Under the pieces are notes generated by a model. It searched no databases. It saw nothing but the letters and a program-made list of their open reading frames with translations, and was not told where the DNA came from. This document shows, one piece after another, positions 4,644 through 53,290 of a DNA stretch of 56,956 bases. How positions within the stretch are numbered: position 1 is the stretch's first letter; every line of letters begins with the position of its first letter. Origin of the DNA: Minisyncoccia bacterium (GTDB taxonomy: Bacteria; Patescibacteriota; Minisyncoccia; Phycocordibacterales; GWA1-40-21); NCBI GenBank assembly GCA_049287185.1, contig JBAQFI010000014.1, positions 1 through 56,956 of the forward strand, given 5' to 3'. The translations under genes and the position numbers were made by a program.

Positions 4644-4702
4644 AGGAAAACCAGTAGGACTATTTATGAAAGTAGGAATCTGTCACAACCATTTTAAAAA
4701 TA

Positions 4703-4853
4703 AGTAGGACCGCTTCGCGTATCTTTTCTTCCTTCGTTTTGTCGTCACAAAACTCAGTCGAAACGCGGTCTCGAATTTCTCGCTGGTGCTCGAAATATAC
4801 TCGACCGTTCTCATCCTACTCGCAAGACACGTAGGTGTCTTGCTTGGGCGCAC
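4703..4853 (-). repeat. tRNA-3'-end-linked structured element, type C body (Lys copy)
   Basis: On the minus strand, GTGCGCCCA is the complement of the tRNA-Lys acceptor 3' strand. A hairpin (AGCAAGACAC/GTGTCTTGCG) follows, then AGTAGGA, the complement of the T-stem 3' strand. Next comes a 47 nt core nearly identical to 11893-11939. The element ends GCGGTCCTACT, echoing tRNA ...TTCCTACT. Confidence 0.8.
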
Positions 4854-4887
4854 AAAATAAAAAACCACTTTCGTTATTTAAAATTGT

Positions 4888-5005
4888 GGTCACAGGTTTT
4901 TTCTTGCTAGAAAAACTCGCGACCCCGCCTCGCGCCGTCGCGCTCCGGCTCGCACACTGCAAACCAAAACCACCAGGTGTCTGGTGGTTTTTAATATTTG
5001 CAGTG
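4888..5005 (-). repeat. tRNA-3'-end-linked structured element, type A body (Lys copy)
   Basis: Directly 3' of tRNA-Lys there is a long hairpin plus T-run, followed by the conserved blocks GGCGGGGTCGCGAG, a hairpin and GTGACC. The same blocks occur in the His, Val and Ser copies. Confidence 0.7.
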
Positions 5006-5078
5006 TGCGCCCAGTAGGAATCGAACCTACGACCAATTGCTTAAAAGGCAACTGCTCTACCAGCTGAGCTATGGGCGC
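5006..5078 (-). tRNA. tRNA-Lys (anticodon UUU)
   Basis: Manual cloverleaf: GCGCCCA acceptor, GCTCAGCTGGTAGAGC D arm, anticodon loop CTTTTAA, T arm GTAGGTTCGATTCCTAC. No CCA is encoded. Confidence 0.9.
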
Positions 5079-12180: not shown

Positions 12181-14316
12181 TTACCATTTTATTTCGAGTT
12201 CCTTAAATGCATTTTTGATTAATAATCTCCCTTCTCTCTGATAGAAACTATATTTTATTGGGCCAGTGGCTCTTTTGGTCGATTTTGTAAAAGCGTGGGA
12301 CAATTCACTTTCAAGTCTTTTTTCGTGAATACTTTTAGTCATTTTGAATATTAACGGATATTTTCTTTCAAATCGGCTATTTTTACTAGATACTGATCCA
12401 CCAATATTTCCTAAAGTGTAATTACCGATTGTCACATCATGCTTAAATAATGATTTCAGTAACAGATCATTAAAGACGTCCATGTAATTTACCCATGCAG
12501 TAATATCAATACCTGCTTTTCTACAACAATTAAAAGCTTTCTTTCGAGCCTCTTCATAATCTGTCCCGAAGATACTTCGCCAATTAATATTTTTAATTTC
12601 ATTGTTCATCCATTTGTTAAAATAGATTTCTATACTACACCAGTTAGCACCAAAGGGTAGCCTTTCTATTAAACCAGACTCTTTGAGAATATTTGCCGCC
12701 CGCAAATTAATATTTTTTTTAATACCCATAATTGGTAACTCACGTTTAACCATGATTACAGCTGCAACGCAAGCGACATCGTTTGACTTATCTCTTATTT
12801 TTTCATTTATGATTTCAGTGAGTCTTTTTGGGCTCAAATTATCATTATCTAGAGCTTGAACTAAAGAAGATCTTACATACCATTCTTTCGGCCTGAGTGC
12901 AAAATCCATTTGCTTTGAAGTGTTGATTAGGTTTTCTCTTATAATGGGTTTCCCAATTGCTATGTGTAAAGCAACTTCAGACTCTAATACTCTTGGATGC
13001 CACTCTTTTTTTAATAAACGATTAAGGCGATTTTTTTGGTCATGTCTAATTCTTCCATCAAGTGTTTCAAAAAGTCCTGCCGTTATGGTTGTATAGACGG
13101 GTTGGCTGTTTATTTCCTTAATAATTAGATTCACGATTGTTTTCGGAAGAAACTTGTATCGCTGAAAATATTGAAAAACTGCTTCAAAATTAGCTGGGTA
13201 TTCCATAAAAATACGCCAGATACGGTAATTTATTTGAGAAGAGGGAATGATTTGACTAAGCGTGAATTTAAAAAGTGTCTGATTGGTTATTTTATATTCT
13301 TTTGTTAATGAAATTATTTTCTTTCGTAGTTTAGTTTGGTTGGTCACCCTCCATTCAGTGGGTGGATCTGTAGGTCTACTTATAGATTTAAGCTCATTCT
13401 CAATATCTTTCACTTTATGTATTTTGATTTTATTACTTTGTGGAAAAAGACCAATATTTTTACTTAGCCTATCAAAACGGACTAACATTTTACGTAATTC
13501 TTTTTCTGATTTTGCAAATAATCTTATATCATCAACATAACGCATATAGCGTATGTGTGGTCGGCTACCATAACCGACATCAAAATATTTTAATACGACT
13601 TCTGATAGAATTCCTGAACTTAATGGACCTTGAGGAATACCGTGATTATGATAGATTTGAGTTGATTCGTTTCCAGTCCACTTACTTAAACAGTTCGTTA
13701 GTAAATCAATGAATTCATTATCGCAATTTATTTCCTTTAGAAAATGACGTAATACTTTATGATCAATACTGTCGTAACAGGCGGTTAAATCAAAGCTAGC
13801 TGTATACACTAGTCCTTTTTTAAAAGATTCTCTCGCCATCTCATTAAACTGCTGATATCCATCAGACCATTTTCTATAAAACCAAACGCTACTTTTACCA
13901 GCATAAAGATTACCAAAATTTTTCACATAATAGTTAGATTTGATTTTTGGAAAAAGATGTTCGGCAATAACATTAGTCATTGCCTGATAAATAATCTGAT
14001 CTTCAATAGTAAGTAGTGTGTATGGACGAAGAACCCCCGATGGTTTAGGTATAAAAATTTTACATCCATGGCTTGGCTCGTAAATATTTTTCTGGATTTG
14101 TTCTGATAAATCCTTAATGATGTAATCTTCTATTAAAAGATAATTAGAGTAAAGATCACGAAAATACCCTTTATATCTCCTATCAGGGTTACTTTTAATC
14201 CAACGCCAAGCACGTTGGATATTTCTTCTATCAAGAACCTCGTTAATTGTTGAAGTATAATTTGGCATATATAATTGATAATATCCATTTAATACACCAT
14301 AATAAAAGGATATCAA
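12181..14316 (-). CDS. reverse transcriptase with a C-terminal extension of about 400 aa (Abi/UG-like, not a group II intron or retron type)
   Basis: RT motifs are readable: KPSGVLRPYT (1-2), FDLTACYDSIDH (3), GIPQGPLSSGILSEV (4), YMRYVDDIRLF (5) and GLFPQSNKIKI (6-7). The ORF start at 14316 is TTG, with an alternative ATG at 14268. Confidence 0.85.
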   Translation of the reverse strand: MISFYYGVLNGYYQLYMPNYTSTINEVLDRRNIQRAWRWIKSNPDRRYKGYFRDLYSNYLLIEDYIIKDLSEQIQKNIYEPSHGCKIFIPKPSGVLRPYTLLTIEDQIIYQAMTNVIAEHLFPKIKSNYYVKNFGNLYAGKSSVWFYRKWSDGYQQFNEMARESFKKGLVYTASFDLTACYDSIDHKVLRHFLKEINCDNEFIDLLTNCLSKWTGNESTQIYHNHGIPQGPLSSGILSEVVLKYFDVGYGSRPHIRYMRYVDDIRLFAKSEKELRKMLVRFDRLSKNIGLFPQSNKIKIHKVKDIENELKSISRPTDPPTEWRVTNQTKLRKKIISLTKEYKITNQTLFKFTLSQIIPSSQINYRIWRIFMEYPANFEAVFQYFQRYKFLPKTIVNLIIKEINSQPVYTTITAGLFETLDGRIRHDQKNRLNRLLKKEWHPRVLESEVALHIAIGKPIIRENLINTSKQMDFALRPKEWYVRSSLVQALDNDNLSPKRLTEIINEKIRDKSNDVACVAAVIMVKRELPIMGIKKNINLRAANILKESGLIERLPFGANWCSIEIYFNKWMNNEIKNINWRSIFGTDYEEARKKAFNCCRKAGIDITAWVNYMDVFNDLLLKSLFKHDVTIGNYTLGNIGGSVSSKNSRFERKYPLIFKMTKSIHEKRLESELSHAFTKSTKRATGPIKYSFYQREGRLLIKNAFKELEIKW

Positions 14317-16081: not shown

Positions 16082-16326
16082 TTGGTCGTATCTAAACGAC
16101 CTAGTAGTAAGGCACGAAAAATCCTCACACTAGGAAGGTTTTTAAGCCTATGTATCAGTTTCCCAATACAACGCACGATACGCCCTAATATGAGGGTTTT
16201 CTGTATCGTGCGATTATTGACCGTGCCACCAGCAAAAGCTAATGGGTTAGGTCCTACGGAATATTCAGTTGTCCATTAATATTAACATTTACAGGGCTTT
16301 CTGCAATAAATAAGTTACCAACTGCA

Positions 16327-17787: not shown

Positions 17788-18861
17788 ATGGAAATTGCAA
17801 AAATAATCGAAGGAATGACAAAAGACCTAGAAAGTAAGACTAACTCGCTTGTCTCTGTTGAACAGATATTGAAGCACGACTTTGGTCCTGAATTATGGAC
17901 TGTGGCTGAATTAATACCCCAAGAATCAATTACTGCCATTACGGGAGCACCAAAATCATTCAAAACATGGCTTGTGCTAGATATTGCCAAATGTATCGCT
18001 AAGGGCACGGATTTCTTAGGAAAATTTAAGACTAGTCAGGGTCGAGTACTTATTATCGATAGAGATAATAATTTACGCCACATTCAAAAACGGCTCAAAA
18101 TGCTCGGATTTGAAAAGGAAGAAATTCTATACCATGTAGGAGAGGGTGAGTTTCAGATTGATAAGGATAAAGACTTCCAGGAGTTATTAAAGACAGTAAG
18201 TGAACAAAAAATTAGTTTGGTGATATTAGATTCTCTCGTGCGGATTCATTCAGGAGATGAGAATGAGTCACGATACATTAACAAGCTAATGACTGCCTTT
18301 AGAAAAGTAACAACTTTGGGTGCCACAATTATTTTTCTACATCATAACCGTAAGGAAAGTCTAAATACACAAAGCACAACCAATAGCGTACGTGGTTCGT
18401 CAGATATTTTTGCCGGTCTTGATTGTCTTCTACAAGTAACCAAGCCAGAAAAGGATTCTCTGTACATCACCCAATCGAAACTAAGAACCGGAGAAGAAAT
18501 GGAACCTTTTAAGGTTCAGATAAATAAAACTGAAGAGTCTATGGAGCTTGTATATGCTGGTAAAAGTGATTTTGGAAGTAAGGACACCTATGAAGTAAAG
18601 ATTATTATTGCTGAGCTATTAGAAGACAAAAAAGAAATGACACGTGAAGAAATAATTAAAGAATTTTCTGAACAATACAAGCCAGTAATAATTAATCTTT
18701 CACTAAAAGAACTTGAATTGTCAGAGAAAATTATTAAAAAGATAGGACCTCATAATAAACATTCTTATGTATTAAACGCAAATTCTACACTAAAAAGTGA
18801 AAAGATTGAAGTTAAAGTGCATAACCCTGTTGATATGAATTTATTAAAAAAGGATAATTAA
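17788..18861 (+). CDS. RecA-superfamily ATPase (RepA / AAA_25-like) typical of integrative and plasmid replication modules
   Basis: Walker A ITGAPKSFKTW, Walker B LVILDSL, sensor region FLHHNRK. Confidence 0.7.
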   Translation: MEIAKIIEGMTKDLESKTNSLVSVEQILKHDFGPELWTVAELIPQESITAITGAPKSFKTWLVLDIAKCIAKGTDFLGKFKTSQGRVLIIDRDNNLRHIQKRLKMLGFEKEEILYHVGEGEFQIDKDKDFQELLKTVSEQKISLVILDSLVRIHSGDENESRYINKLMTAFRKVTTLGATIIFLHHNRKESLNTQSTTNSVRGSSDIFAGLDCLLQVTKPEKDSLYITQSKLRTGEEMEPFKVQINKTEESMELVYAGKSDFGSKDTYEVKIIIAELLEDKKEMTREEIIKEFSEQYKPVIINLSLKELELSEKIIKKIGPHNKHSYVLNANSTLKSEKIEVKVHNPVDMNLLKKDN

Positions 18862-18870
18862 AATTAAATT

Positions 18871-20511
18871 ATGAATCAAAATAAAGTTGCAGTTATATAT
18901 TGTAGAGTTTCCACGGACGAACAAGCCAAGGAAGGTTTGTCTATTGAATCGCAGGAACTTACTTGTCGAAGAAAAGCTGAAGAGGAGGGATATTCCGTTA
19001 TTGAAGTAATAAAAGATGAAGGTAAGAGTGGAAAAAATATTAATCGAGAGGGAATGAAAAATATTTTAAGGTTAGTGAATGAGAAAAAAATAAATGCTAT
19101 CTATTTGGTAAATACCGACAGGCTTTCCAGAAATGTAGCCGACCATATATATCTTACTGACCTCTTTAGAAAGAATAAAGTGTTGTTAAGATCAATAAAT
19201 CAACCAACATTAGATAGTTCAGCCACTTCCATAACTATGGATTTAATGATGGCAACAATGAACCAGTTTCAAAGATTGAATACAGCAGAAAAAGTTAAAT
19301 CGACAATGCATGAAAAAGCTAAAGCTGGTTATTACCCCAGTAAGGCTCCTGTCGGCTACAAGAATGTCCAAGACTTAAATAAGTCGGAAAGATTTGCTAG
19401 AAAAACAATTATTATTGATGAAAAAGCAGCGGTCTTTGTTAGGGAAATTTTTAGACTGTATGCCACTGGCGAACACAATGCGGTTGAAGTCAGCGATATT
19501 GTCTACGATAAAGGATTTAGGAGTAGAGGTGGAAAGAAAGTATCGGACTCCAAAATCTATATGATGTTAAAAAATCGATTCTATATTGGAGAGATAAACT
19601 GGGGAGAAATACATATTCCTAAAGCTAAGCATGAGCCCTTAATTGAAAGAGTGGTATTTGATCAAGTTCAAAGTGTTTTGAATTCCCACAATAAGCATTC
19701 TTGTCGGCGGCGAAAGTACAAATGGTTGCTTAGTGGATTCCTTAGGTGCCATAAACATAATTCTAGATATACGGCTGAATGGCATTTAAACAAAAAGATT
19801 GCTTACTATCACTGTACGGTTAATGGTTGCGGTAAATTCTCCGAACAGGTAAAACTTGAAAATGCTATCGCTGAAAAGTTTAAGGACCTTGAGTTCAGCC
19901 CAGATTTTATTGAATTAGTTATTAGTAAGGCAAAAAACATCTTCTATGAACGAAGAGAGGTGTATGAAAGCAAGAGACAGGGTTTGATTAATCAAAAAAG
20001 TGCCTTCGAAGCCAAATTAAAGGTAGCGGAAACCAAATTACTATCAGGCACCTTAAAAGACGAGGACTTCAAAAGGATCCGAGAGGAAATTAAAAAAGAA
20101 ATTGACCTAATTGATAATAGGATAGTTGAAGTTCAGAAGGGTAAGGAGATAAATGTTGATATGACAAGGGAAATAATTGGGCTAACTAAGAATATTTTTG
20201 AAACATATCAAAAGGCTTTACCTGAGCTAAAAAGGTTATTTCTGGGTTTCTTTTGGGAAAGGTTTGAAGTATCTGAAGGTATTATAATAAATTCCATTCC
20301 CTCTATATTATTTAGCCAATTAATCAAACTTGAGAAGGCATATCAAAAAAGCCAAAATACTAATAAACCCAGTGATTTTGCTAATGTTATAAGTTCTACT
20401 GACTTGTCCCCCCACTTGGAATCGAACCAAGATTTTGAGTTCCGCAAACTCATGTCCTATCCATTGAACGATGAGGAGATGAACGGGAAGACTATAGCAC
20501 ACTTTTTTTAA
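18871..20511 (+). CDS. large serine recombinase (integrase)
   Basis: Resolvase catalytic motif VIYCRVSTDEQ, recombinase domain, Cys-rich zinc ribbon (CHKHN...YYHCTVNGC), coiled-coil region. The last roughly 35 codons run antisense through the tRNA at 20407-20478. Confidence 0.9.
   Translation: MNQNKVAVIYCRVSTDEQAKEGLSIESQELTCRRKAEEEGYSVIEVIKDEGKSGKNINREGMKNILRLVNEKKINAIYLVNTDRLSRNVADHIYLTDLFRKNKVLLRSINQPTLDSSATSITMDLMMATMNQFQRLNTAEKVKSTMHEKAKAGYYPSKAPVGYKNVQDLNKSERFARKTIIIDEKAAVFVREIFRLYATGEHNAVEVSDIVYDKGFRSRGGKKVSDSKIYMMLKNRFYIGEINWGEIHIPKAKHEPLIERVVFDQVQSVLNSHNKHSCRRRKYKWLLSGFLRCHKHNSRYTAEWHLNKKIAYYHCTVNGCGKFSEQVKLENAIAEKFKDLEFSPDFIELVISKAKNIFYERREVYESKRQGLINQKSAFEAKLKVAETKLLSGTLKDEDFKRIREEIKKEIDLIDNRIVEVQKGKEINVDMTREIIGLTKNIFETYQKALPELKRLFLGFFWERFEVSEGIIINSIPSILFSQLIKLEKAYQKSQNTNKPSDFANVISSTDLSPHLESNQDFEFRKLMSYPLNDEEMNGKTIAHFF
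20407..20478 (-). tRNA. tRNA-Arg (anticodon GCG), atypical C1-G72 acceptor
   Basis: Manual cloverleaf: CTCCTCA acceptor paired with TGGGGGG (two G-U pairs), D arm GTTC/GGAC, anticodon stem TGAGT/ACTCA with loop TTGCGGA, T arm CTTGGTTCGATTCCAAG, discriminator A. No CCA is encoded. Confidence 0.65.
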
Positions 20512-21052: not shown

Positions 21053-21140
21053 GGAGAGGTGGCAGAGTGGTCTAATGCACCGGTCTTGAAAACCGGAACC
21101 TGGGCAACCGGGTCGCGAGTTCGAATCTCGCCTTCTCCGC
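21053..21140 (+). tRNA. tRNA-Ser (anticodon UGA)
   Basis: GGAGAGG acceptor, anticodon stem-loop CCGGT CTTGAAA ACCGG, long variable arm, T arm GCGAGTTCGAATCTCGC. No CCA is encoded. Confidence 0.9.
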
Positions 21141-21324
21141 AACGATAAAATAACGCGAAAGCGTTATTTTTGTTGTGGAGAAGGAGTAATGTGTTTGAAC
21201 ACATTACGTCGAGATTCGAAAGGAATTTTGATATTTTGTTAGTAAACAAAATCAAAATTCCGGGGTCGAGGAAAAAATATGTGACGACATATTTTTGAGG
21301 TGACCGAACAGCCTTCTCCGCAAC
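21141..21324 (+). repeat. tRNA-3'-end-linked structured element (Ser copy, type A-like)
   Basis: The order is terminator hairpin, TGTGGAGAAGG (complement of the acceptor 3' strand), hairpin AGTAATGTGT/ACACATTACGT, then CGAGATTCGAA (21210-21220), the exact complement of T-loop plus stem. The body carries CGGGGTCGAG and GTGACC. A 14 nt perfect direct repeat GCCTTCTCCGCAAC lies at 21130-21143 and 21311-21324. Confidence 0.85.
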
Positions 21325-21325
21325 A

Positions 21326-21357
21326 ATACCCAACAACTGTAAGTTGCTGGGTATTTT
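21326..21357 (+). terminator. terminator hairpin after the Ser element
   Basis: ACCCAACA/TGCTGGGT stem followed by ATTTT. Confidence 0.45.
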
Positions 21358-25914: not shown

Positions 25915-26235
25915 ATGATTTTTAAAAATAATAAACAAAATTTATATCAAATTTTAACCACCCATAAAACTGGTTATAAGAAAATTTTTGACAATTGGTT
26001 GATTGTTATTTTTACAAGCATTATATTAAATATTGCCATAATAATTTTAGCAATTTATTTTTGGACAATAATTAATAATCAAGAAATTACGATCCCAAGA
26101 CCTGAAACACTCGGTAATTTTGAAATGATTGATAAAAACCTCTTAGAAAAAATCATCAATCATTTTGATGAACAAGTAAAAATTAGTGATAATTGGGTAA
26201 AAGCGAGTCATTTATTGATTGACCCATCTCTCTGA
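25915..26235 (+). CDS. small bitopic membrane protein in the pilus operon
   Basis: One TM helix (WLIVIFTSIILNIAIIILAIYFW). Coupled to the preceding gene. Confidence 0.45.
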   Translation: MIFKNNKQNLYQILTTHKTGYKKIFDNWLIVIFTSIILNIAIIILAIYFWTIINNQEITIPRPETLGNFEMIDKNLLEKIINHFDEQVKISDNWVKASHLLIDPSL

Positions 26236-26257
26236 TAATGTTATATTTTTAGCGCTC

Positions 26258-26329
26258 GCCCTCGTAGCTTAATGGATAAAGCAGAGCTCTTCTAAGGCTT
26301 TGATGTGGGTTCGATTCCTGCCGAGGGCG
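26258..26329 (+). tRNA. tRNA-Arg (anticodon UCU)
   Basis: GCCCTCG acceptor, anticodon loop CTTCTAA, T arm GTGGGTTCGATTCCTGC. No CCA is encoded. Confidence 0.9.
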
Positions 26330-26562
26330 CAAAAATTAAAACCGCTAAAAGCGGTTTTAATTTGCCTGCCCTCGAGAAGCCGTGGAGACGGCTTCGTGCA
26401 GGAATCGAAGCCCCATTGAGTGTATTTTGTGAGTCCTTCGAAACAAAATACCCAATGGGGGTACTGAAGCTGTAAGTTTCGATAAATGTACTCATGGCCC
26501 TGCCGTCTTAATTCTTTGAGTGACGACGAGTAAAATATCTGTGACAGATTCCTGTCGAGCCC
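26330..26562 (+). repeat. tRNA-3'-end-linked structured element (Arg-UCU copy, type B body)
   Basis: The order is terminator hairpin, GCCCTCGA, hairpin GAAGCCGT/ACGGCTTC, then GCAGGAATCGAA, the exact complement of TTCGATTCCTGC. The body has the 8 bp helix CCCCATTG (26411-26418) / CAATGGGG (26453-26460). A degenerate terminal copy GATTCCTGTCGAGCCC follows. Confidence 0.8.
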
Positions 26563-26873
26563 TATTTTTTCTTCATCATTACCACCATAATTATCGTTCC
26601 AATCGTCCAAAGTGGTAAAACATCAACAAGAGGAATTAACTCCCCAAGAGAACTGACTGATATAGTCGCCAATTGTTTAGGATGATGGGTCAGAGGTATT
26701 TTTAATAGACTAAACCAAATCCAGAAAATAATTGTTGTAATCAGAGTGATTATGGGCACAACATATGTTCCTAATATAAAGGTCGTTAAAATTAATTGTG
26801 TCAGGTCAATTATCATTGCAAAAGCAATCATCAAAAATGCAGTCAGGTTTGTTATTTTTTGTGTATTTTCCAT
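26562..26873 (-). CDS. small polytopic membrane protein
   Basis: 103 aa with three hydrophobic helices. Confidence 0.5.
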   Translation of the reverse strand: MENTQKITNLTAFLMIAFAMIIDLTQLILTTFILGTYVVPIITLITTIIFWIWFSLLKIPLTHHPKQLATISVSSLGELIPLVDVLPLWTIGTIIMVVMMKKK

Positions 26874-26954
26874 AAAATAGATTGTAGCAATAAGTAAAAA
26901 GGAAGGGAAGCTTTCTTGATTATTGAAGTAATTTAAGCTATATTTTTCCTATAT

Positions 26955-27027
26955 GGGCGGTTAGCTCAGTTGGTAGAGCGCAACATTGACGTTGTTGATG
27001 TCAGAGGTTCGAATCCTCTACCGCCCA
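26955..27027 (+). tRNA. tRNA-Val (anticodon GAC)
   Basis: GGGCGGT acceptor, GCTCAGTTGGTAGAGC D arm, anticodon loop TTGACGT, T arm AGAGGTTCGAATCCTCT. No CCA is encoded. Confidence 0.9.
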
Positions 27028-27275
27028 CAAAAAATACGAAGTAGTTTTTTTGTGGGCGGTAAGTAAGGTCTGGAGAGACCTTACGTGAGGATTCGAAGTC
27101 CGATTGAGTATTTTTTCTAGCTGACTAGCGAAGAAAAAATCCAGAGGGGTTGAATTGCGAATACTTAGAGTAATTCAAAGACGGAGGCTGACGAGCCGAG
27201 TCGGGGTCGCGTAAATTTTCAATAGAAAATTATATGTGACCTGACCGTGTAACGGTCGAAATTCCTCTACCTACG
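27028..27275 (+). repeat. tRNA-3'-end-linked structured element (Val copy, chimeric type B/A body)
   Basis: TGTGGGCGGTA (27051-27061) is the exact complement of TACCGCCCACA. The hairpin AGTAAGGTCT/AGACCTTACGT follows. GAGGATTCGAA (27087-27097) is the exact complement of TTCGAATCCTC. The body has AGACGGAGG, GAGTCGGGGTCGCG and GTGACC, and a degenerate terminal copy AATTCCTCTACCTACG follows. Confidence 0.85.
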
Positions 27276-27332
27276 TACTGATAATTTTTCTTATACTATA
27301 TACATAATACCCTATACTAAATACTAATTTTC

Positions 27333-28112
27333 ATGCTAGTCTATAATCACACTATGAAAATCCCAATCCTCTATGAAGACAAAGATATAGCTATCATCAA
27401 CAAACCAGCCGGTTTAATGGTGCACCCTGATGGAAAATCTAAACCCGCCCGACCGAATGATTCTGGTCATTCGGGCGGGGAAAAAACTTTAGTGGATTGG
27501 GTATTACAGAAATTTCCCGCTACTAAAAAAGTGGGGGAGCCAATAACTTTAACAGATGGAACAGTGATTATTCGTCCTGGTATTGTTCATCGCTTAGATA
27601 AAGAAACTTCCGGAGTCATGATTGTAGCCAAGACTAAAGCTGGTTTTGAATTTTATAAAGATAAATTTCAAAATCGCGAGATGAAAAAAGTTTATCATGC
27701 TTTTGTTTGGGGAGAAGTAAAAGAAGATGATGGTAAAATAAACCGTCCAATCGGCAGAAGTAGTACTGATTTTCGTCTTTATTCCGCTCAGCGTGGAGCT
27801 CGTGGTGAGATTCGTGAAGCCTTAACCGAGTATAATGTCTTATTCCGTGGCAAGGGTTATTCATTTGTTTCTGCTATGCCTAGAACCGGACGAACACACC
27901 AGATTCGTGTCCATTTTAAGGCTGTAAACCATCCGATTATTGGCGATGCTCTTTATGCTCCAAAATACAGAAAAGCCCTCGGATTCAAACGAGTTGCCCT
28001 ACATTCATACGCTATAAATTTTATTGATCGCCAAGGTAAGGAGATTACAGTGAAGGCACCTGATCCAGAAGACTTTAAAATAGCGGCCAAGAAAATCGGC
28101 CTAATTAAGTAG
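27333..28112 (+). CDS. RluA-family pseudouridine synthase
   Basis: HRLDKETSGVMIV catalytic motif and GRTHQIR motif. The probable true start is the Met at 27354 (MKIPILYED). Confidence 0.85.
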   Translation: MLVYNHTMKIPILYEDKDIAIINKPAGLMVHPDGKSKPARPNDSGHSGGEKTLVDWVLQKFPATKKVGEPITLTDGTVIIRPGIVHRLDKETSGVMIVAKTKAGFEFYKDKFQNREMKKVYHAFVWGEVKEDDGKINRPIGRSSTDFRLYSAQRGARGEIREALTEYNVLFRGKGYSFVSAMPRTGRTHQIRVHFKAVNHPIIGDALYAPKYRKALGFKRVALHSYAINFIDRQGKEITVKAPDPEDFKIAAKKIGLIK

Positions 28113-28159
28113 ATATAACGTTTGCTTTTATTAGAAACCTGTGCTAAATTGTCCACATT

Positions 28160-28555
28160 ATGGAAATCAAGATGTCACCAGTAAATATTGAAGAAAGAAA
28201 GAAAATGGATATTCGCGCAGGCGATACTATTTGTGTTTGGCAAAAAATTATTGAAGGAGATAAGTCTCGTTTGCAGGCTTTTGAAGGAATTGTTTTAGCT
28301 CGTAAACATGGTACTGAAGCTGGTGGAACTTTCACCGTTCGTAAAGTTATTGATGGTATTGGTGTAGAAAAGATTTTCCCATTGTATTCTCCTAATGTTG
28401 ATAAAATTGACATCATCCGCCGTTCAAAAGTTCGTCGTGCAAAACTTTATTACATTCGTGACAAAGCTACCAAAGAAATCAAACGTCACATGCGCAAGAT
28501 TATGGGTACCAACGAAGTTAAGGAAGATAAAGTTGCTGATAAGAAAGCTGAATAA
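28160..28555 (+). CDS. rplS: 50S ribosomal protein L19
   Basis: [25 protein letters not shown]...[10 protein letters not shown] pattern. Confidence 0.9.
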
Positions 28556-28560
28556 AATTA

Positions 28561-28587
28561 AAAAAACCGCTCATCGCGGTTTTTTTG
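28561..28587 (+). terminator. intrinsic terminator
   Basis: AAAAAACCGCTCATCGCGGTTTTTTT. Confidence 0.75.
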
Positions 28588-28651
28588 TTTAATACTAATT
28601 GGTATACGCTATATCCTTGAGCACTAATTATATATATGATAAAATAAGGTA

Positions 28652-29314
28652 ATGGGAAAGAGGGGAACAAAGCCAAAGAATAAAGTAAAAATTAAGTGGT
28701 CCGGTAATTTTGCTTATGCAATGGGACTGATTGCTACTGATGGTAATTTATCTCCAGATGGACGCCATATTAATTTTACTTCTAAGGATATCGAACAGAT
28801 AGCAAATTTTATGAAGGCACTAGAAATAGAATGCAATATTGGAAAAAAATCAAATGGCCACGTTAAACATAAAAAATACTTTGTAATTCAGTTTGGAGAC
28901 GTTAATTTCTATTCGTTTCTCAATTCGATTGGACTAAAACCTAATAAGTCTAAAACTATCGGTAGTATTAAACTGCCAAGCAAATATTTTTTTGATTTCT
29001 TGAGGGGATGCTTTGATGGGGATGGTTGTTTCTATTCATATTGGGATAAACGCTGGAAATCTAGTTTTATGTTTTACACTGAATTCGTATCGGCCAGTCA
29101 AAAACACATTTTATGGCTACAAGATGAAATATTTAGAAGGATAAATATTAAGGGACATATAACAAAGGGCGGAAATAATTCTTGTTATCAATTAAAATAT
29201 GCCAAATCTGATTCTCTAAAATTATTAAAAAAAATTTATTATAAAGGTGATTTAATCTGTCTAGATAGGAAGAAGTTGAAAATTAGAAAAATATTAGGTA
29301 ATATTGCCAAGTAG
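28652..29314 (+). CDS. LAGLIDADG-family homing endonuclease (two-motif, free-standing)
   Basis: Two LAGLIDADG-like motifs, YAMGLIATDGNL and FLRGCFDGDGCF, about 100 aa apart. Confidence 0.8.
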   Translation: MGKRGTKPKNKVKIKWSGNFAYAMGLIATDGNLSPDGRHINFTSKDIEQIANFMKALEIECNIGKKSNGHVKHKKYFVIQFGDVNFYSFLNSIGLKPNKSKTIGSIKLPSKYFFDFLRGCFDGDGCFYSYWDKRWKSSFMFYTEFVSASQKHILWLQDEIFRRINIKGHITKGGNNSCYQLKYAKSDSLKLLKKIYYKGDLICLDRKKLKIRKILGNIAK

Positions 29315-29335
29315 CTCGGTTTAATAGGAGTTAAT

Positions 29336-29419
29336 GCACGGGTGTCGAAACTGGTAGACGATCTGCCTTGAGGTGGCAGCGCCCGCAAGGGCATGGAGGT
29401 TCAAGTCCTCTCCCGTGCA
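29336..29419 (+). tRNA. tRNA-Leu (anticodon GAG)
   Basis: GCACGGG acceptor, anticodon stem-loop CTGCC TTGAGGT GGCAG, long variable arm, T arm GGAGGTTCAAGTCCTCT. No CCA is encoded. Confidence 0.9.
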
Positions 29420-29588
29420 CAAAAAATACCCTAAGAAGGGTATTTTTTCTGCGCGGAGCAAGCCATGGGGATGGCTTGCGAGAGAGGACTTGAAGCCTGT
29501 TTGAGTATTTTATCGAGCTTTCTTAAGCGAAGAAAAAATCCAAACAGGATACTGGTCATGTAATGACCAAGATTCCTCTCCCGTGCAA
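29420..29588 (+). repeat. tRNA-3'-end-linked structured element (Leu copy, type B body)
   Basis: The order is terminator hairpin, TGCGCGGAG, hairpin CAAGCCAT/ATGGCTTG, then GAGAGGACTTGAA, the exact complement of TTCAAGTCCTCTC. The body has the helix CCTGTTTG (29496-29503) / CAAACAGG (29541-29548). A 14 nt perfect direct repeat TCCTCTCCCGTGCA lies at 29406-29419 and 29574-29587. Confidence 0.85.
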
Positions 29589-29723
29589 CACTATTTCATC
29601 TTACCCCTTTACAAACAAACAATACTATGCTAGATTATACATGTAACCGCCAGAAGCGGTTTTGTTCTTTAAGTGGCTTAAATACTAAGCTAAAATCAAA
29701 ATAAATCAAAAAAGGGGGAAGAC

Positions 29724-29963
29724 ATGCTAAGAATGCAATGTACCAAGAAACAATGCGAAAAGTGCATCAGTTGCACGTGTTCGGTGCGAGATTTAGTTCG
29801 CGAAAAAACTGGATACGAGGGTAAGATTAGTCCGAGGAATTGGACTAGGCTTATAAGGCTGGGAATCTTTGATGCTTTGGTGTCAGAAAAAAAAGGTGAC
29901 CCGATTGTTGGGGACACCTTGAAAAAAATCGCCAATAAAGTATTGGCCGGTCAGTCACTTTAA
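29724..29963 (+). CDS. small Cys-rich hypothetical protein
   Basis: AAGGGGG RBS 5 nt upstream, N-terminal CxxxxCxxCxxCxC pattern. Preferred over the overlapping antisense ORF 29696-29935. Confidence 0.5.
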   Translation: MLRMQCTKKQCEKCISCTCSVRDLVREKTGYEGKISPRNWTRLIRLGIFDALVSEKKGDPIVGDTLKKIANKVLAGQSL

Positions 29964-30033
29964 TTTATTTTGACTAGCGAGGAGCGGATGGAAGAGTACT
30001 CTCTTACATCACGTCCGAGCGAAGTCAAACTAT
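29964..30033. repeat. 70 nt repeat, copy 1 of an inverted pair
   Basis: The reverse complement of 29964-30033 matches 43587-43657 with a single mismatch by manual alignment. Confidence 0.9.
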
Positions 30034-30064
30034 GAGGTTTACGCTCTTAATTTTTGATTAACAA

Positions 30065-30095
30065 AAGTCCACATCTAAAGATGCGGACTTTTTCT
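30065..30095 (+). terminator. intrinsic terminator
   Basis: AAGTCCACATC/GATGCGGACTT hairpin followed by TTTT. Confidence 0.55.
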
Positions 30096-30126
30096 TTTGT
30101 ATTTTTTCTGATGTATAATTTGTGAC

Positions 30127-30660
30127 ATGTATACTCGAAAAGGTGATGATGGTAAAACCACTTTATTTCATTGTGATCAGCGCTTATCAAAAAGCTCTAT
30201 TATTGCTGAGGCTCTAGGCACGCTTGATGAACTAAATTCTTTTTTAGGAATTTGTCGTACCAAAGCCAGTGGTGAAGAAAATAACGATTTAGCAAAACAA
30301 ATTTTACTGGTGCAAAATGATTTATTTATTATTCAGGCTAGTTTGGCTGGTGCTGATAAACATATTAATCTAGAGAGGGTAGAGTGGTTAGAAAATATAA
30401 TTGGAGGAATTGAAAAAGAAATTCCACCCATTAAAAATTTTATTATTCCAGGTAGTGATGAGGTAACCGCACATATAGATTATGCTCGAACACTAGCTCG
30501 CAAAGCTGAAAGGAGAGCGGTCGCAGTTTTCGATGAAGGAAAAGTTCAAGTGGAAAAAAATACTTTAATTTATTTAAATCGTTTATCCTCATTTTTGTTT
30601 GCTTTAGGTAGACAAAAGGCCTATAAGTCTGGTATAAATGAGGAGCATCCAAATTACTAG
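30127..30660 (+). CDS. PduO-type ATP:cob(I)alamin adenosyltransferase family protein
   Basis: N-terminal YTRKGDDGKTTL motif, size 177 aa. Confidence 0.8.
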   Translation: MYTRKGDDGKTTLFHCDQRLSKSSIIAEALGTLDELNSFLGICRTKASGEENNDLAKQILLVQNDLFIIQASLAGADKHINLERVEWLENIIGGIEKEIPPIKNFIIPGSDEVTAHIDYARTLARKAERRAVAVFDEGKVQVEKNTLIYLNRLSSFLFALGRQKAYKSGINEEHPNY

Positions 30661-30692
30661 GATGCAATATCTGTTAATCTAGCAGAACTAAT

Positions 30693-30764
30693 GGTGCCTA
30701 TAGTTTAGTGGTAAAACTCCGGTTTGTGGAACCGGTATCGAGAGTTCGATTCTCTCTAGGCACC
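30693..30764 (+). tRNA. tRNA-His (anticodon GUG) with encoded G-1
   Basis: G-1 at 30693 pairs with C73. Anticodon stem-loop CCGGT TTGTGGA ACCGG, T arm GAGAGTTCGATTCTCTC. No CCA is encoded. Confidence 0.9.
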
Positions 30765-30963
30765 CAAAAATAACGAGCTAAACACAATAGTGTTTAGCGA
30801 TTATATTTTTGTAGTACCTAGAGAGAATCGAAAGACGGAGGCCGCGAAGCCAGTCGAACGTAGTGAGACTGTGGCCGAGTCGGGGTCGAGAGTACTTAGG
30901 CTTTTAGAAATTCATATTTTTAAAAGACTTAGTAACTCGTGACCGATTCTCTCTAGGCACCCA
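30765..30963 (+). repeat. tRNA-3'-end-linked structured element (His copy 1, type A body, unsplit guide)
   Basis: Terminator hairpin first. GTACCTAGAGAGAATCGAA (30814-30832) is the complement of TTCGATTCTCTCTAGGCAC with one mismatch. The body has AGACGGAGG, GAGTCGGGGTCGAG and GTGACC. The element ends in a perfect 20 nt copy of the tRNA 3' end (30944-30963). Confidence 0.85.
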
Positions 30964-31197
30964 TGAAAAAAGCGGCGTAAGCCGTTTTTGTCATGGGTGC
31001 CTAAGCAAACAAAAGTATTTGTTTGCGTGGAGAATCGAAAGACGGAGCCAATGATTTTCAGTAGAAAATCATGTGAGTCGGGGTCGCGACTTTTTCTGAA
31101 CGACGGTGAAGAAAAAAGCCGTGACCGATTCTCTCGTTTTCCTAATAAAATTTAATTGGGACTGCTCCTGTAATGGTCGATTCTCTCTAGGCACCCA
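30964..31197 (+). repeat. tRNA-3'-end-linked structured element (His copy 2 plus a short third stub)
   Basis: The order is terminator hairpin, TGGGTGCCTA (30994-31003), hairpin AGCAAACAAA/TTTGTTTGCGT, GGAGAATCGAA. The body has AGACGGAG, GAGTCGGGGTCGCG and GTGACCGATTCTCTCG. A stub of about 55 nt follows, ending in a third perfect 20 nt copy (31178-31197). Confidence 0.85.
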
Positions 31198-31260
31198 CAT
31201 TTCAAAAACTTGTAATCCGAAATCAATCCCTTCTCTTATATTTTTTGCTATAATATTTCT

Positions 31261-32181
31261 ATGCTAGCTTTATTATCTTCAATTTTTGGAGCAGTCGGTT
31301 CATTAGCCCTATTTATTTTTAGTATATTATCCTTTGACAGACTAATCCGAAAACATACCAGTAGTAAAATAAAGGAATTATTAACATCATTAACTTCAAA
31401 TCCTGTTAAGGGTCTAATTTTTGGTTTTATTACTTCAGCTATAATACAATCCAGCTCGGCTCTAACTACCTTACTTGCGTCGCTAGCTGATGCTGGAATG
31501 ATTTCTATTTATAACAGTCTGGGTGTTATTTTCGGAGCCAACATTGGTACTACTATCACTGCTCAATTAATAGCCTTCAATTTTGCTAGCATCTCACCTT
31601 TAATAATTATTATTGGTGTTATATTTTTACTTTGGGGTGGACGATTTCGTAATTATGGAAAGCCAATAATTTATTTTGGTCTGTTATTTTTTTCAATTTA
31701 TTTAATCTCCTATTTTGTTTCCAAAGTAGACAGTGTTTTCTTTATAGATTACATTGCTTTAATTTCTAATTTATACATTGCTATTTTTGTTGGTATTATT
31801 GCTTCAACTCTATCTCAATCAAGCAGTGTCGTAACCGGAATAGTGCTCGTTATGGCGGGCATGGGGCATTTCGATTTGATGCAGTCTGTCGGTTTGATTC
31901 TGGGAGCAAACATTGGTACTACCACAACAGTTTTAATTGCTTCCTTGGTAATGGGTAAAGAAGCAAAAAAAGTTGCTGTTGCTCAATTTCTCTTTAACTT
32001 TTTAGGCGTTATTATTGTTTTACCTATTATTAATATTTTTTATTATGTTGTCGATTGGCTTGACGGTGACATCGTCCATCAGGTCGCAAATATTCATTTA
32101 CTATTTAATGTTTTTTGTGCCGCGGTCTTTATAATTGCGATTAAACCTTTTGCCTGGTTAGTCAATAGAATTGTAAAATAA
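31261..32181 (+). CDS. Na/Pi cotransporter family protein (short, no PhoU domain)
   Basis: Duplicated QSSSA(L/V)T...GANIGTT motifs in a polytopic membrane protein. Confidence 0.8.
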   Translation: MLALLSSIFGAVGSLALFIFSILSFDRLIRKHTSSKIKELLTSLTSNPVKGLIFGFITSAIIQSSSALTTLLASLADAGMISIYNSLGVIFGANIGTTITAQLIAFNFASISPLIIIIGVIFLLWGGRFRNYGKPIIYFGLLFFSIYLISYFVSKVDSVFFIDYIALISNLYIAIFVGIIASTLSQSSSVVTGIVLVMAGMGHFDLMQSVGLILGANIGTTTTVLIASLVMGKEAKKVAVAQFLFNFLGVIIVLPIINIFYYVVDWLDGDIVHQVANIHLLFNVFCAAVFIIAIKPFAWLVNRIVK

Positions 32182-53174: not shown

Positions 53175-53290
53175 TCTTTGTTTCAACGTAGGCCCTTCGT
53201 ATATCTTGCCTTGGCAAGCTCTATATTGAAGGGTCTTTTTTATTTCCATTTCTAATGACTTTTTTTGGTTTTTTTGCTATCTTTAGACGT

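Follow-up and report, generated by a model that had tools for sequence, protein, structure and literature searches.

Of seven tRNA genes in a 56,956-nucleotide stretch of DNA from a Minisyncoccia bacterium (hereafter, the window), six are followed by units of about 140-250 nt that encode no protein, and each unit repeats the 3' end of its tRNA, first inverted and then direct. We give about an even chance to the reading that these units belong to a new, Patescibacteria-wide, non-autonomous putative mobile family with a guide-like segment, whose insertion point appears to be picked by base pairing with the target.

Units downstream of the tRNA genes

The seven tRNA genes were located by ARAGORN, at positions that agree with those in a preliminary description of the window. 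Exact matching was used to look downstream of each gene, on the tRNA's own strand, for its 3' end in inverted orientation and, farther on, in direct orientation. Both orientations were found, in that order, for tRNA-Lys, -Ser, -Arg(TCT), -Val, -Leu, and -His. In the case of tRNA-Arg(GCG) (20406-20478, minus strand), the exact-match scan and the own-versus-other scoring gave no such copies and no unit; thus, the preliminary description, which had assigned the layout to all seven genes, was right for six and wrong for this one. A serine recombinase ORF (18871-20508, plus strand) overlaps tRNA-Arg(GCG) in antisense, and the neighbour of this tRNA is a serine-recombinase island.

A unit starts with an A-run, a hairpin, and a T-run, which make up a terminator. 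The next module is a complement of the target that spans the insertion point, with about 3 nt on its left and 8-22 nt on its right, and in the long forms a semi-conserved hairpin divides this complement exactly at the boundary of the acceptor and the T-stem. The body is either a three-way junction (type B) or of type A, which terminates in a UGUAA-loop hairpin. The B core reads AGNCGGAG-hairpin-GAGNCGGGGTCGCG-hairpin-GTGACC as DNA and AGNCGGAG-hairpin-GAGNCGGGGUCGCG-hairpin-GUGACC as RNA. The sharing of body blocks between different tRNAs, described earlier, was confirmed: the units form one modular family, and the shared block is the three-way-junction core. The motif CGGGGTCGMG occurs five times without mismatch, each time behind a tRNA and on that tRNA's strand, and eight times with up to one mismatch (1.0 expected); AGACGGAG occurs five times (0.5 expected).

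On the plus strand, tRNA-Arg(TCT) (26258-26330; also detected by the Rfam tRNA model) is the target and upstream partner of an array at 26331-26563 that holds one full unit and a 3' remnant. The array contains a terminator (26338-26358), an acceptor complement (26367-26376), a variable hairpin (26377-26395), the T-arm complement GCAGGAATCGAA (26398-26409), an A-type body hairpin (26410-26461), a UGUAA-loop hairpin (26466-26480), a mini-hairpin (26484-26495), and a decayed direct repeat (26496-26505). A B-core 3' remnant (26510-26546), whose homologue is the hairpin-2 portion of the tRNA-Arg B unit in the relative L121, and a second decayed repeat (26547-26563) follow. The exact inverted matches behind this tRNA are GCCCTCG and GCAGGAATCGAA.

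The unit of tRNA-Val(GAC) (26955-27028, plus) occupies 27029-27278 and comprises a weak terminator (27029-27051), the acceptor complement TGTGGGCGGTA (27051-27061), a variable hairpin (27062-27086), a T-arm complement (27087-27097), an A-type hairpin (27098-27149), a GCGAAUACUU-loop hairpin (27150-27178), a B core (27179-27241), a UGUAA hairpin (27242-27257), and a decayed repeat (27258-27278). Its inverted matches are TTTGTGGGCGGTA and GAGGATTCGAA, its decayed direct copy spans 9 nt, and the covariance model matched 27169-27251 with 78 bits. The unit of tRNA-Leu(GAG) (29336-29420, plus), at 29421-29589, is of type A only, without a B core (fold z-score -6.3). It has a terminator (29421-29448), an imperfect acceptor complement (29449-29458), a variable hairpin (29459-29478), a T-arm complement (29480-29494), an A-type hairpin (29495-29548), a UGUAA hairpin (29553-29569), and a repeat (29570-29589); its inverted match is GAGAGGACTTGAA, and its direct copy is 14 nt.

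Three units are stacked behind tRNA-His(GUG) (30694-30765, plus), with direct copies of 20, 10, and 21 nt. Unit 1 (30766-30963; z -7.0) comprises a two-way terminator (30777-30798), an unsplit complement (30814-30832; 16-nt inverted match), a B core (30833-30944), and a repeat (30945-30963); the model scored 35.9 bits with filters off and 55 bits in a second model run. Unit 2 (30964-31135; 56 bits) has a terminator (30966-30989), an acceptor complement (30994-31004), a variable hairpin (31005-31026), a T-arm complement (31029-31039), a B core (31040-31126), and a truncated repeat (31127-31135); further inverted matches behind this tRNA are TGGGTGCCTA and GAGAATCGAA. Unit 3 (31136-31197) is reduced to the 3' terminal UGUAA hairpin (31159-31178) and a full repeat (31179-31197).

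Outside this cluster, the unit of tRNA-Ser(UGA) (21053-21140, plus) lies at 21141-21324 and folds strongly (z -9.7), with a model score of only 9.5 bits. It consists of a terminator (21147-21170), an acceptor complement (21174-21184), a variable hairpin (21185-21209), a T-arm complement (21210-21220), a degenerate B-like body (21221-21305), and a repeat (21311-21324); the inverted matches are GGAGAAGG and CGAGATTCGAA, the direct copy is 14 nt, and the native terminator follows the unit at 21325-21357. On the minus strand, tRNA-Lys(UUU) (5005-5078) is followed by two units (inverted matches AGTGTGCG and TGTGCGCCCA; direct, GATTCCTACT and TCCTACTGG). Unit 1 (4885-5004; 82.7 bits), a short form, has a terminator (4966-4992), a complement of the last tRNA bases and the trailer (4951-4965), and a B core (4888-4950), then ACA. 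Unit 2 (4651-4884), a long form with an A-type body, has a terminator-like element (4855-4884), an acceptor complement (4844-4854), a variable hairpin (4822-4843), a degenerate T-arm complement (4808-4821), a body (4681-4807), and partial repeats (4671-4680 and 4651-4659).

The folded core and its distribution

Pattern searching placed 76 of 120 matches in low-GC loci, almost all of Patescibacteria, where the covariance model was then run. Together with the window, these loci gave 99 copies in 76 sequences, again almost all from Patescibacteria; the listed model matches take in nearly all of the 99 copies. Only one of the 45 high-GC pattern matches and none of the eight viral ones were confirmed by the model, and the family was absent from the viral contigs scanned. 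No Rfam 15 family matched, even when the element was searched by itself with E values of up to 10, and a literature search found no described counterpart, which agrees with the earlier statement that the units fit no described RNA family or mobile element class.

In 37 copies, 88% of the core positions were paired, against 70% in shuffles, and none of 500 shuffles equalled this; in 99 copies, 90.5% were paired, against 66% in shuffles and 33-46% in slid controls. RNAalifold, run independently, yielded the same core fold. G.U outnumbered A.C by 182 to 10 (31 to 10 without two near-invariant G.U columns), so the folded strand is the tRNA-sense strand. The core contains G.T wobbles as well as a bulged A that is conserved. 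That the pattern reflects chance resemblance or faulty assembly near tRNA genes is refuted by 99 copies from independent assemblies, by covariation above all 500 shuffles, by motif counts far above shuffles, and by strand and position specificity; only the metagenomic origin of most sequences speaks for it.

The units of the window fold with z-scores of -4.6 to -9.7 into a closing helix and a multi-way junction. This predicted helix accords with the earlier proposal that the 5' complement pairs with the unit's own 3' copy. However, in almost all copies the complement is a better match to the functional tRNA upstream than to the distal repeat, and that picture is therefore secondary.

Target matching, putative mobility, and alternative explanations

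A tRNA gene on the same strand lies within 350 nt upstream of 61 of the 99 cores, and one on the opposite strand in three cases; 26 anticodon identities are represented. In all 26 clean cases, the 3' end of the core adjoins a repeat that begins directly after the T-loop TTC; the last body helix is joined directly to tRNA position 57, and positions 57 to ~74 recur on the far side of the unit. The repeat ranges from 3-4 nt to ~59 nt, and the 3' junction is invariant. The tRNA upstream of the unit is intact and is now served by the element's terminator.

When own and other tRNAs were compared in 60 copies, the own tRNA was favoured for both the inverted copy (p = 2e-10) and the direct copy (p = 3e-14). 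In the window, with the shared T-loop excluded, the own-tRNA inverted score was clearly best for Lys, Ser, Val, and His, and its advantage was marginal for Arg(TCT) and Leu. The claim that both segments track tRNA identity therefore holds overall, but many copies outside the window carry only a generic T-loop complement (median tRNA-specific inverted score 6, versus 5 for other tRNAs), so the specificity of the 'guide' is often low. The target-matching segments differ between tRNAs, and the units cannot be explained by fixed terminal inverted repeats, as had been argued. Closed-hairpin copies without a guide are present at other sites.

The reported association with tRNA 3' ends holds for the 61 cores, but the 3' end of topA and other sites are also targets. 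At topA, the complement co-varies with the target, also at bases on the left side of the junction (GACAAAAACG with CGTTTTTGTC; CACAAAAACC with GGTTTTTGTG; CACCAAAACC with GGTTTTGGTG). The two gene-end copies are identical at 51 of 60 positions in locus L071, with mostly third-position, allele-like differences, and in L018 a 32-nt identical run gives way to ~64% identity. These copies resemble an element-borne surrogate, or a sequence brought in by homologous recombination, more than a new duplication.

One 144-nt element, 94-98% identical, is found at three tRNAs, one tRNA-Lys(CTT) and two variants of tRNA-Arg(TCT), with a constant 5' end in all five copies; each copy is flanked by 18 nt of its own host tRNA. 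The repeat thus comes from the target and not from the element, which directly supports the earlier suggestion of copying of the target. An empty orthologous site was found: at tRNA-Leu(GAG), the relative L124 has no unit, the window a single one of type A, and L121 two of type B. The tRNA-Arg units likewise differ between the window, L121, and L125. Units stack in tandem, decay, and vary in presence between relatives.

Under the mobile-family reading, the complementary stretch would be a guide that, as RNA or as single-stranded DNA, pairs with the sense strand of the target where this is exposed. This pairing might position the two element ends so that they bracket the paired segment, which subsequent repair would duplicate. 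Host enzymes or the folded core may do the joining, and ordinary homologous recombination could spread units at the same locus between lineages. The match between complement and tRNA could also arise by hairpin-templated correction during replication, with no guiding role.

Not every unit is recent. The tRNA-Arg B remnant is common to the window and a relative with 68% identity in RluA; some units are therefore old, and movement may be rare. Such persistence would suit a resident, non-mobile functional RNA, a cis-acting 3' module of tRNA genes that serves as a terminator or as an acceptor/T-minihelix mimic engaging RNase P, RNase Z, the CCA-adding enzyme, or a synthetase. Its complement and repeat would arise by local duplication and hairpin-templated correction, and gain and loss by unequal crossing-over involving the repeats. 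Occupancy is very high (six of seven tRNAs here, and six of seven scorable tRNAs in relatives picked via a protein and not via the element), sequence and structure are strongly conserved, each unit supplies a terminator, G.U pairs suit RNA, and the hairpin interrupts the complement at exactly the point from which the D and anticodon arms of a real tRNA branch off. We nevertheless consider this explanation unlikely: near-identical elements sit at different tRNAs in different genomes, one tRNA-Leu site is empty, orthologous tRNAs hold different body types, insertions reach beyond tRNA genes, for instance to the topA 3' end, and distal repeats decay. The terminator upstream of the element should also make co-transcription with the tRNA inefficient.

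Miniature derivatives of classical integrative elements, mobilised in trans by a tyrosine or serine integrase that recombines a tRNA 3' end carried by the element (attP) with the tRNA gene (attB), are likewise rather unlikely. The upstream tRNA end would then be element-borne, the downstream repeat the displaced original, and the core a binding site for integrase or an accessory protein, perhaps as folded single-stranded DNA. In the CTX-phage and attC mechanisms, a folded single strand integrates, and the order 'tRNA end, loop, inverted copy, body, tRNA end' fits such integration. Tandem arrays with decayed distal repeats, allele-like topA copies as for an element-borne surrogate, and a bulged A and G.T wobbles that recall protein-read DNA hairpins point the same way, as does the serine recombinase beside the window's one element-free tRNA. 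However, at three tRNAs the 144-nt element is bordered on either side by repeats that differ and match the respective target, repeat length varies, and one integrase would need to serve at least 26 tRNA identities and topA. The 76 loci showed no element-borne or neighbouring recombinase and no enrichment of integrase or reverse transcriptase nearby.

Quite improbable is a SINE-like retroposon, whose RNA would be copied by reverse transcriptase primed on the nicked target; it predicts an exact 3' junction, a variable 5' junction, duplications that vary in length, and 5'-truncated copies. The invariant 3' junction, the variable repeat length, and three orphan 3' ends against no orphan 5' blocks agree with this, although these counts are tiny. 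A retroviral primer-binding site is complementary to a tRNA 3' end up to the T-loop, and the complement, which has this span, would act likewise. The complement, however, omits CCA and runs on into the trailer, and the 5' end does not vary among the copies of the 144-nt element. The window does encode a reverse transcriptase, but it belongs to group UG19, whose homologues occur in several other phyla (named matches include Acidobacteriota and Deltaproteobacteria) and which is thus not Patescibacteria-specific, and reverse transcriptases are not enriched near the elements.

Comparison with known systems

Among tRNA-targeting integrative elements, tyrosine-integrase islands, prophages, and tycheposons also use the 3' part of a tRNA gene, keep the tRNA intact, leave a direct repeat of its 3' end, and may stack in tandem; protein-gene 3' ends are targeted too, with a replacement end supplied. 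The elements described here differ in having 140-250 nt and no integrase, a conserved, covarying single-strand fold with an inverted target copy, flanking repeats that derive from the target when one and the same element is at different tRNAs, and a variable repeat length. Integron attC and CTX-phage attP(+) sites share a strand-specific fold, an extrahelical base, a variable hairpin tip, and the post-integration layout 'site, loop, inverted site, cargo, site'. In contrast, our elements have a three-way junction instead of a simple hairpin, with neither IntI nor a dif-like site, and neither corresponding Rfam family matched.

IS200/IS605 elements and their small derivatives (PATEs, REP) are likewise small, non-coding, and without terminal inverted repeats, and have strand-specific hairpins; this family and the TnpB/IscB guide RNAs read a site by pairing with a short internal guide. 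They insert after a 4-5 nt motif without target duplication, however, and no TnpA, TnpB, or IscB was found near our elements. In those guide RNAs the flanking sequence is the guide, whereas in our elements the flank is complementary to a segment inside the element. Group II introns (EBS/IBS) and IS110 bridge RNAs also place a copy-specific target complement beside a structured core, but they carry a gene for a protein of their own, differ in build or are far larger, and leave no target duplication of 18-22 nt; our elements have no Rfam match. Retroviruses and LTR retrotransposons carry a complement to the last ~18 nt of a tRNA, to the T-loop, whereas the present elements, in bacterial DNA, lack the CCA complement, LTRs, and gag/pol. 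HDV-like theta ribozymes, GOLLD, and ROOL are structured RNAs that adjoin tRNA genes; our elements differ in matching no Rfam family, in their absence from the scanned viral contigs, and in the terminator that stands between the tRNA and the element.

Elements behind the tRNA genes of the window

We called seven tRNA genes in the window with ARAGORN and, in the 1.3 kb of same-strand sequence that follows every gene, looked for exact pieces of the last 30 nt of the tRNA, direct or inverted. The same series of segments was found behind six of them (Lys, Ser, Arg-TCT, Val, Leu, and His): an A-run, hairpin, and T-run; the inverted acceptor 3' strand; usually a hairpin; the inverted T-stem 3' strand and T-loop; a body; and a direct copy of the 3' part of the tRNA. 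The preliminary description had assigned this layout to all seven genes; it holds for six of the seven, because tRNA-Arg(GCG) showed none of the series in the exact-piece scan, and a search of the window gave no second copy of the end of this tRNA. The coordinates of all unit segments were checked. Among the terminators directly behind the tRNAs, only that of tRNA-His was confirmed, because the criteria of the simple scan were strict. As had also been described, CCA is encoded by none of the seven genes; the discriminator base is followed by C and then by an A-rich run, and intact repeats contain the C that comes after the discriminator base.

The body blocks said to be common to different tRNAs are indeed shared, at counts far above chance. 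CGGGGTCGMG has five zero-mismatch occurrences in the window, each behind a tRNA and on its strand, and eight matches with up to one mismatch (1.0 expected); AGACGGAG occurs five times (0.5 expected). The fold drawn earlier was borne out, with z-scores of -4.6 to -9.7 for the units. With a covariance model of the conserved three-way-junction body (the B core; 83 positions), Val, Lys unit 1, and His units 1 and 2 (units numbered 5' to 3') stood out as clear copies in the window, all four on the strand of their tRNA. The core of the Ser unit is degenerate under the model. Lys unit 1 exemplifies the short forms, which are inserted at the extreme 3' end of a tRNA and have a repeat of 3-4 nt. The Arg-TCT and Leu units, Lys unit 2, and His unit 3 contain an alternative, A-type body, in which a long hairpin with UUGAGUAUUUU...GCGAAGAAAAAAUCC is followed at the end by a hairpin with a UGUAA loop; this body was also found behind tRNAs of other genomes. 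Mimicry of an anticodon arm by the UGUAA hairpin was rejected, as its loop has 5 nt and its stem 4-7 bp.

At 26510-26546, 31136-31178, and 4681-4720 (minus strand) of the window, and at L148 (L-numbers denote loci from other genomes), the 3'-terminal hairpin and the repeat are all that remains of a unit. Three orphan 3' ends and zero orphan 5' blocks among about 100 copies are counts too small to interpret. GCGAAGC and GUGUACUCAC-type mini-hairpins recur in the elements (window 26484-26495 and 30856-30862; L010, L004, L057, and L085). The oligonucleotide d(GCGAAGC) forms an unusually stable single-stranded DNA hairpin, and mini-hairpins of this type give a weak hint of a DNA intermediate.

Some other features of the window were recorded. 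A large serine recombinase (Resolvase, Recombinase, and zinc ribbon; CcrB-like) beside an AAA_25 protein lies at 17788-20508 (plus strand), and its 3' end overlaps in antisense tRNA-Arg(GCG) (20406-20478, minus strand), the sole tRNA in the window without a small element; the region looks like an integrated island at this gene. A LOOT RNA (Rfam RF03000, 74.9 bits) at 16135-16253 (minus strand) precedes, on its own strand, three small ORFs and a reverse transcriptase of 711 aa (12184-14316, minus strand) that PADLOC assigns to group UG19 (E = 2e-165); LOOT and UG19 may be linked. Homologs of this reverse transcriptase occur in several phyla; thus, it was rejected as a phylum-specific engine of the elements. 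At 53255-56812 (plus strand), an isoleucyl-tRNA-synthetase-like protein of 1186 aa has a histidine-phosphatase domain (residues 520-692) inserted in its class I catalytic domain.

Core structure and distribution

A single motif holds the AGACGGAG, GAGTCGGGGTCG(C/A)G, and GTGACC blocks, in the order AGNCGGAG, hairpin 1, GAGNCGGGGUCGCG, hairpin 2, and (C/U)GUGACC. The N of the first core block pairs with the N of the second as A-U or C-G, and GGUCGCG pairs with CGUGACC through a G.U that almost never changes, with a bulged A above this helix. In 37 aligned copies, 88% of the cells were paired, compared with 70% in shuffles (0/500 as good) and 37-44% in slid controls, and RNAalifold predicted the same helices without input from us. 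With 99 copies, the values were 90.5% and, in shuffles, 66%. Because G.U pairs outnumber A.C mismatches (182:10, or 31:10 without two fixed G.U columns), the folding strand is the tRNA-sense strand, as RNA or single-stranded DNA. The three-way junction is surrounded by about 30 near-invariant nucleotides, and the core meets the repeat at its base; together, these features are at most suggestive of a possible new class of self-cleaving ribozyme.

The preliminary description had called for a covariance model of the copies, and the model finds further copies in related genomes. Scanning a single genome of each species with a three-block pattern gave at least 120 loci. Among the matches listed, 76 were from low-GC loci, almost all in Patescibacteria (Saccharibacteria, Paceibacterota, and Nomura-, Kaiser-, Adler-, and Berkelbacteria). 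The covariance model found 99 copies in the low-GC loci listed and the window, and the pattern matches cover nearly all of them. Only 1 of the 45 high-GC matches among those listed was confirmed by the model, and we regard the high-GC actinobacterial matches as chance; on viral contigs, none of the eight pattern matches was confirmed, and no tRNAs were nearby. Three confirmed copies in bins labeled Elusimicrobia or Bdellovibrionales are either real or due to mis-binning. Among the matches listed, the family is specific and extends across the phylum. By the named homologs of its RluA, the window belongs to a Parcubacteria/Paceibacterota genome.

Targets, turnover, and a possible mechanism

A tRNA on the same strand was present within 350 nt upstream of 61 of the 99 cores, and a tRNA on the opposite strand in 3 of the 99; the upstream tRNAs have 26 anticodon identities. 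In all 26 copies with a clean repeat, the repeat starts directly after GTGACC and directly after TTC of the T-loop, corresponding to tRNA position 57. It ends 0-7 nt beyond the tRNA in most copies, with outliers to +39, and the duplication is 13-29 nt long in most clean cases, with extremes of 3-4 nt (Lys unit 1) and 59 nt.

The complement, a guide-like stretch 5' of the core that is antisense to the target, changes with tRNA identity, as does the terminal copy; both had been claimed from the window. In 60 copies, the own tRNA was matched better than other tRNAs by the inverted segment, T-loop excluded (p = 2e-10), and by the direct repeat (p = 3e-14). In nearly all copies, the complement is a closer match to the functional tRNA upstream than to the distal repeat. 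It extends leftward past the junction (the insertion point after TTC) by about 3 nt, and GAA lies opposite TTC in 38 of the 54 copies with a tRNA. In the case of tRNA-Arg(TCT), the complement reads GCAGG, the Watson-Crick complement of the 3' strand, whereas the 5' strand is the G.U-containing GUGGG, which rules out a copy of the tRNA's own 5' strands. Because many copies carry only a generic T-loop complement, target-specific pairing is limited to a subset. Growth of the complement with age (strong complements with decayed repeats) was also considered and rejected, the correlation being gone without the T-loop (rho -0.02).

A protein-coding gene is also a target. In five genomes (L018, L025, L042, L066, and L071), the core is located about 60 nt before the stop codon of topA (topoisomerase I), a second copy of the gene end is present, and the 10 nt before the core co-vary with the target, including the bases left of the junction. 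The two end copies are identical at 51 of 60 positions in L071, with changes mostly at third codon positions, and share in L018 an identical run of 32 nt followed by about 64% identity. The copies differ as alleles do, which does not fit a simple duplication. We read the pattern as element-bearing alleles that may have passed from lineage to lineage through homologous recombination, one crossover falling within the repeat; a surrogate end borne by the element would give the same pattern. Further contexts of the core besides topA (L001 and L016; L029, L036, and L068; L011) are antisense, beside incomplete 5S rRNA copies; within truncated tRNA-Ser or 5' parts of other tRNAs, with an intact copy further downstream and a closed hairpin instead of the guide; and, by eye only, apparently within a uvrC-like reading frame.

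A metagenome scan for one subfamily gave a 144-nt element that recurs, with 94-98% identity, at tRNA-Lys(CTT) and two distinct tRNA-Arg(TCT) sequences. The 18 nt on either side of each copy are those of the tRNA at which it lies (positions 57-74); therefore, the repeat derives from the target and does not travel with the element, which supports the copying of the target envisaged earlier. Relatives of the window were chosen through a neighboring protein, and the sample is thus not biased towards elements. They include an empty site of the kind that the preliminary description had proposed to look for at orthologous tRNAs: tRNA-Leu(GAG) is empty in L124, whereas the window carries a single A-type unit there and L121 a pair of B units. 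At tRNA-Arg(TCT), the window, L121, and L125 have different units. Some insertions are old, since one hairpin remnant is common to the window and L121. In L121, the tRNA-Leu and tRNA-Arg units have a homologous splitting hairpin and core, with tRNA-specific complements on either side of the hairpin. The T-loop of the empty gene (L124 3484-3566) reads TGCGAGT instead of TTCGAGT, a change that falls opposite the GAA of the element and may reflect either a resistant allele or mere coincidence. Immediately before tRNA-Leu, the window has a free-standing LAGLIDADG-type ORF (28652-29311, plus strand), which is conserved at this place in L121 and L124.

In all forms, pairing of the complement runs without a break over the left junction, with the target end and the element's own first bases, and the last helix of the element adjoins the first base of the paired target segment. 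From this geometry, we infer a pairing-and-duplication mechanism, a reading about as likely as not. A single-stranded tRNA-sense element would pair with the exposed sense strand of the target, pairing would place the two ends of the element at the two ends of the paired segment, and joining and repair would duplicate that segment. Such a mechanism would give a fixed right junction, a repeat length that tracks the reach of the complement, a single orientation, and an intact tRNA.

As for the activity behind it, the core and complement might form a self-contained, reprogrammable targeting device, with the guide rewritten on a change of target. As RNA or single-stranded DNA, the device would pair with the sense strand of the gene, and the 3' end of the element would then be joined to the paired site, either through catalysis by the device itself or by a housekeeping enzyme that it recruits. 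The result would be a guide-directed mobile element that has no protein gene. We advance this proposal tentatively, as an unlikely one. Among the rivals, a resident RNA linked to tRNA genes is improbable, and the empty and variously occupied tRNA-Leu(GAG) sites speak against it. A trans-acting integrase that uses a folded single-stranded site is improbable as well. The G.T-compatible wobbles and bulged A are compatible with an attC/CTX-type site and do not separate DNA from RNA, and neighbor-gene clustering found no recombinase, nuclease, or reverse transcriptase common to the 76 loci, the clusters being housekeeping only (CCA-adding enzyme, IF-2, RbfA, and topoisomerase I). Retroposition, to which the same clustering result applies, is very improbable.

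If the reading as pairing-guided elements holds, Patescibacteria genomes contain a class of non-coding mobile elements that is abundant and unannotated; in this clade, these occupy most tRNA genes, select their sites by means of a short complementary segment, and keep the target gene whole by duplicating its end. This would be a further case of pairing-based target selection beside group II introns, IS110 bridge RNAs, and TnpB/IscB, and could indicate an insertion or cleavage activity that is compact and programmable. On the most conservative reading, what remains is a structured motif of RNA or single-stranded DNA that is new, strongly covarying, and widespread in a large uncultivated phylum. 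It bears on the annotation of tRNA genes, on terminator prediction, and on how 'tRNA fragments' in Patescibacteria genomes are interpreted.

Comparison with known families

The preliminary description had recognized no described RNA family in the elements, and Rfam 15 agrees at three stringencies: a search of the whole window at gathering thresholds returned tRNAs and LOOT only, and searches at E up to 5 (26200-31300) and up to 10 (the Val unit alone) returned noise. Hammerhead, twister, pistol, hatchet, HDV-like, GOLLD, ROOL, HEARO, group I/II intron, and tmRNA families were unmatched. Full-text literature searches gave no description of the elements, and the mentions of LOOT, tRNA, and integrase in the 2017 list of 224 motifs hold nothing relevant.

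Integrase-mobilized tRNA islands resemble the elements in position and in the repeat. However, the islands have an integrase at or in the element, and their upstream tRNA end is borne by the element; the units here are 140-250 nt without a conserved ORF, and the 144-nt element is bordered at either end by tRNA-specific sequence, at tRNA-Lys as well as at two tRNA-Arg variants. MITEs have terminal inverted repeats of fixed sequence and a short duplication of fixed length, whereas here the end sequences differ with the target and the duplication length varies; a fixed-end transposase, as argued before, cannot explain this. Group II introns and bridge RNAs are alike in target pairing, but a group II intron is a six-domain ribozyme with domain V and usually a reverse transcriptase, and the elements have no Rfam intron match and no ORF. 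In tRNA-like structures (viral TLS, tmRNA domain), the acceptor end is free with NCCA and the T-loop is in sense; in the elements, the helix runs past the discriminator into the trailer, the T-loop is present solely as its complement, and the Rfam tRNA clan gave no match.

IS200/IS605 derivatives (PATE) are likewise small hairpin elements with a short guide; that group has sub-terminal hairpins at both ends, inserts 3' of a 4-5 nt motif, makes no target duplication, and goes with a TnpA or TnpB encoded in the genome. The strand-specific hairpins and the constant C56 before the junction fit this group, but the duplication does not. Integron attC and CTX-phage sites, which recombine as folded single-stranded DNA via IntI or XerCD, are similar in layout and strand-specific folding. 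For the remaining families, a tested defining feature is lacking in the elements; with IS200/IS605, attC, and self-cleaving ribozymes compared in part, we provisionally rate the elements as a new kind.
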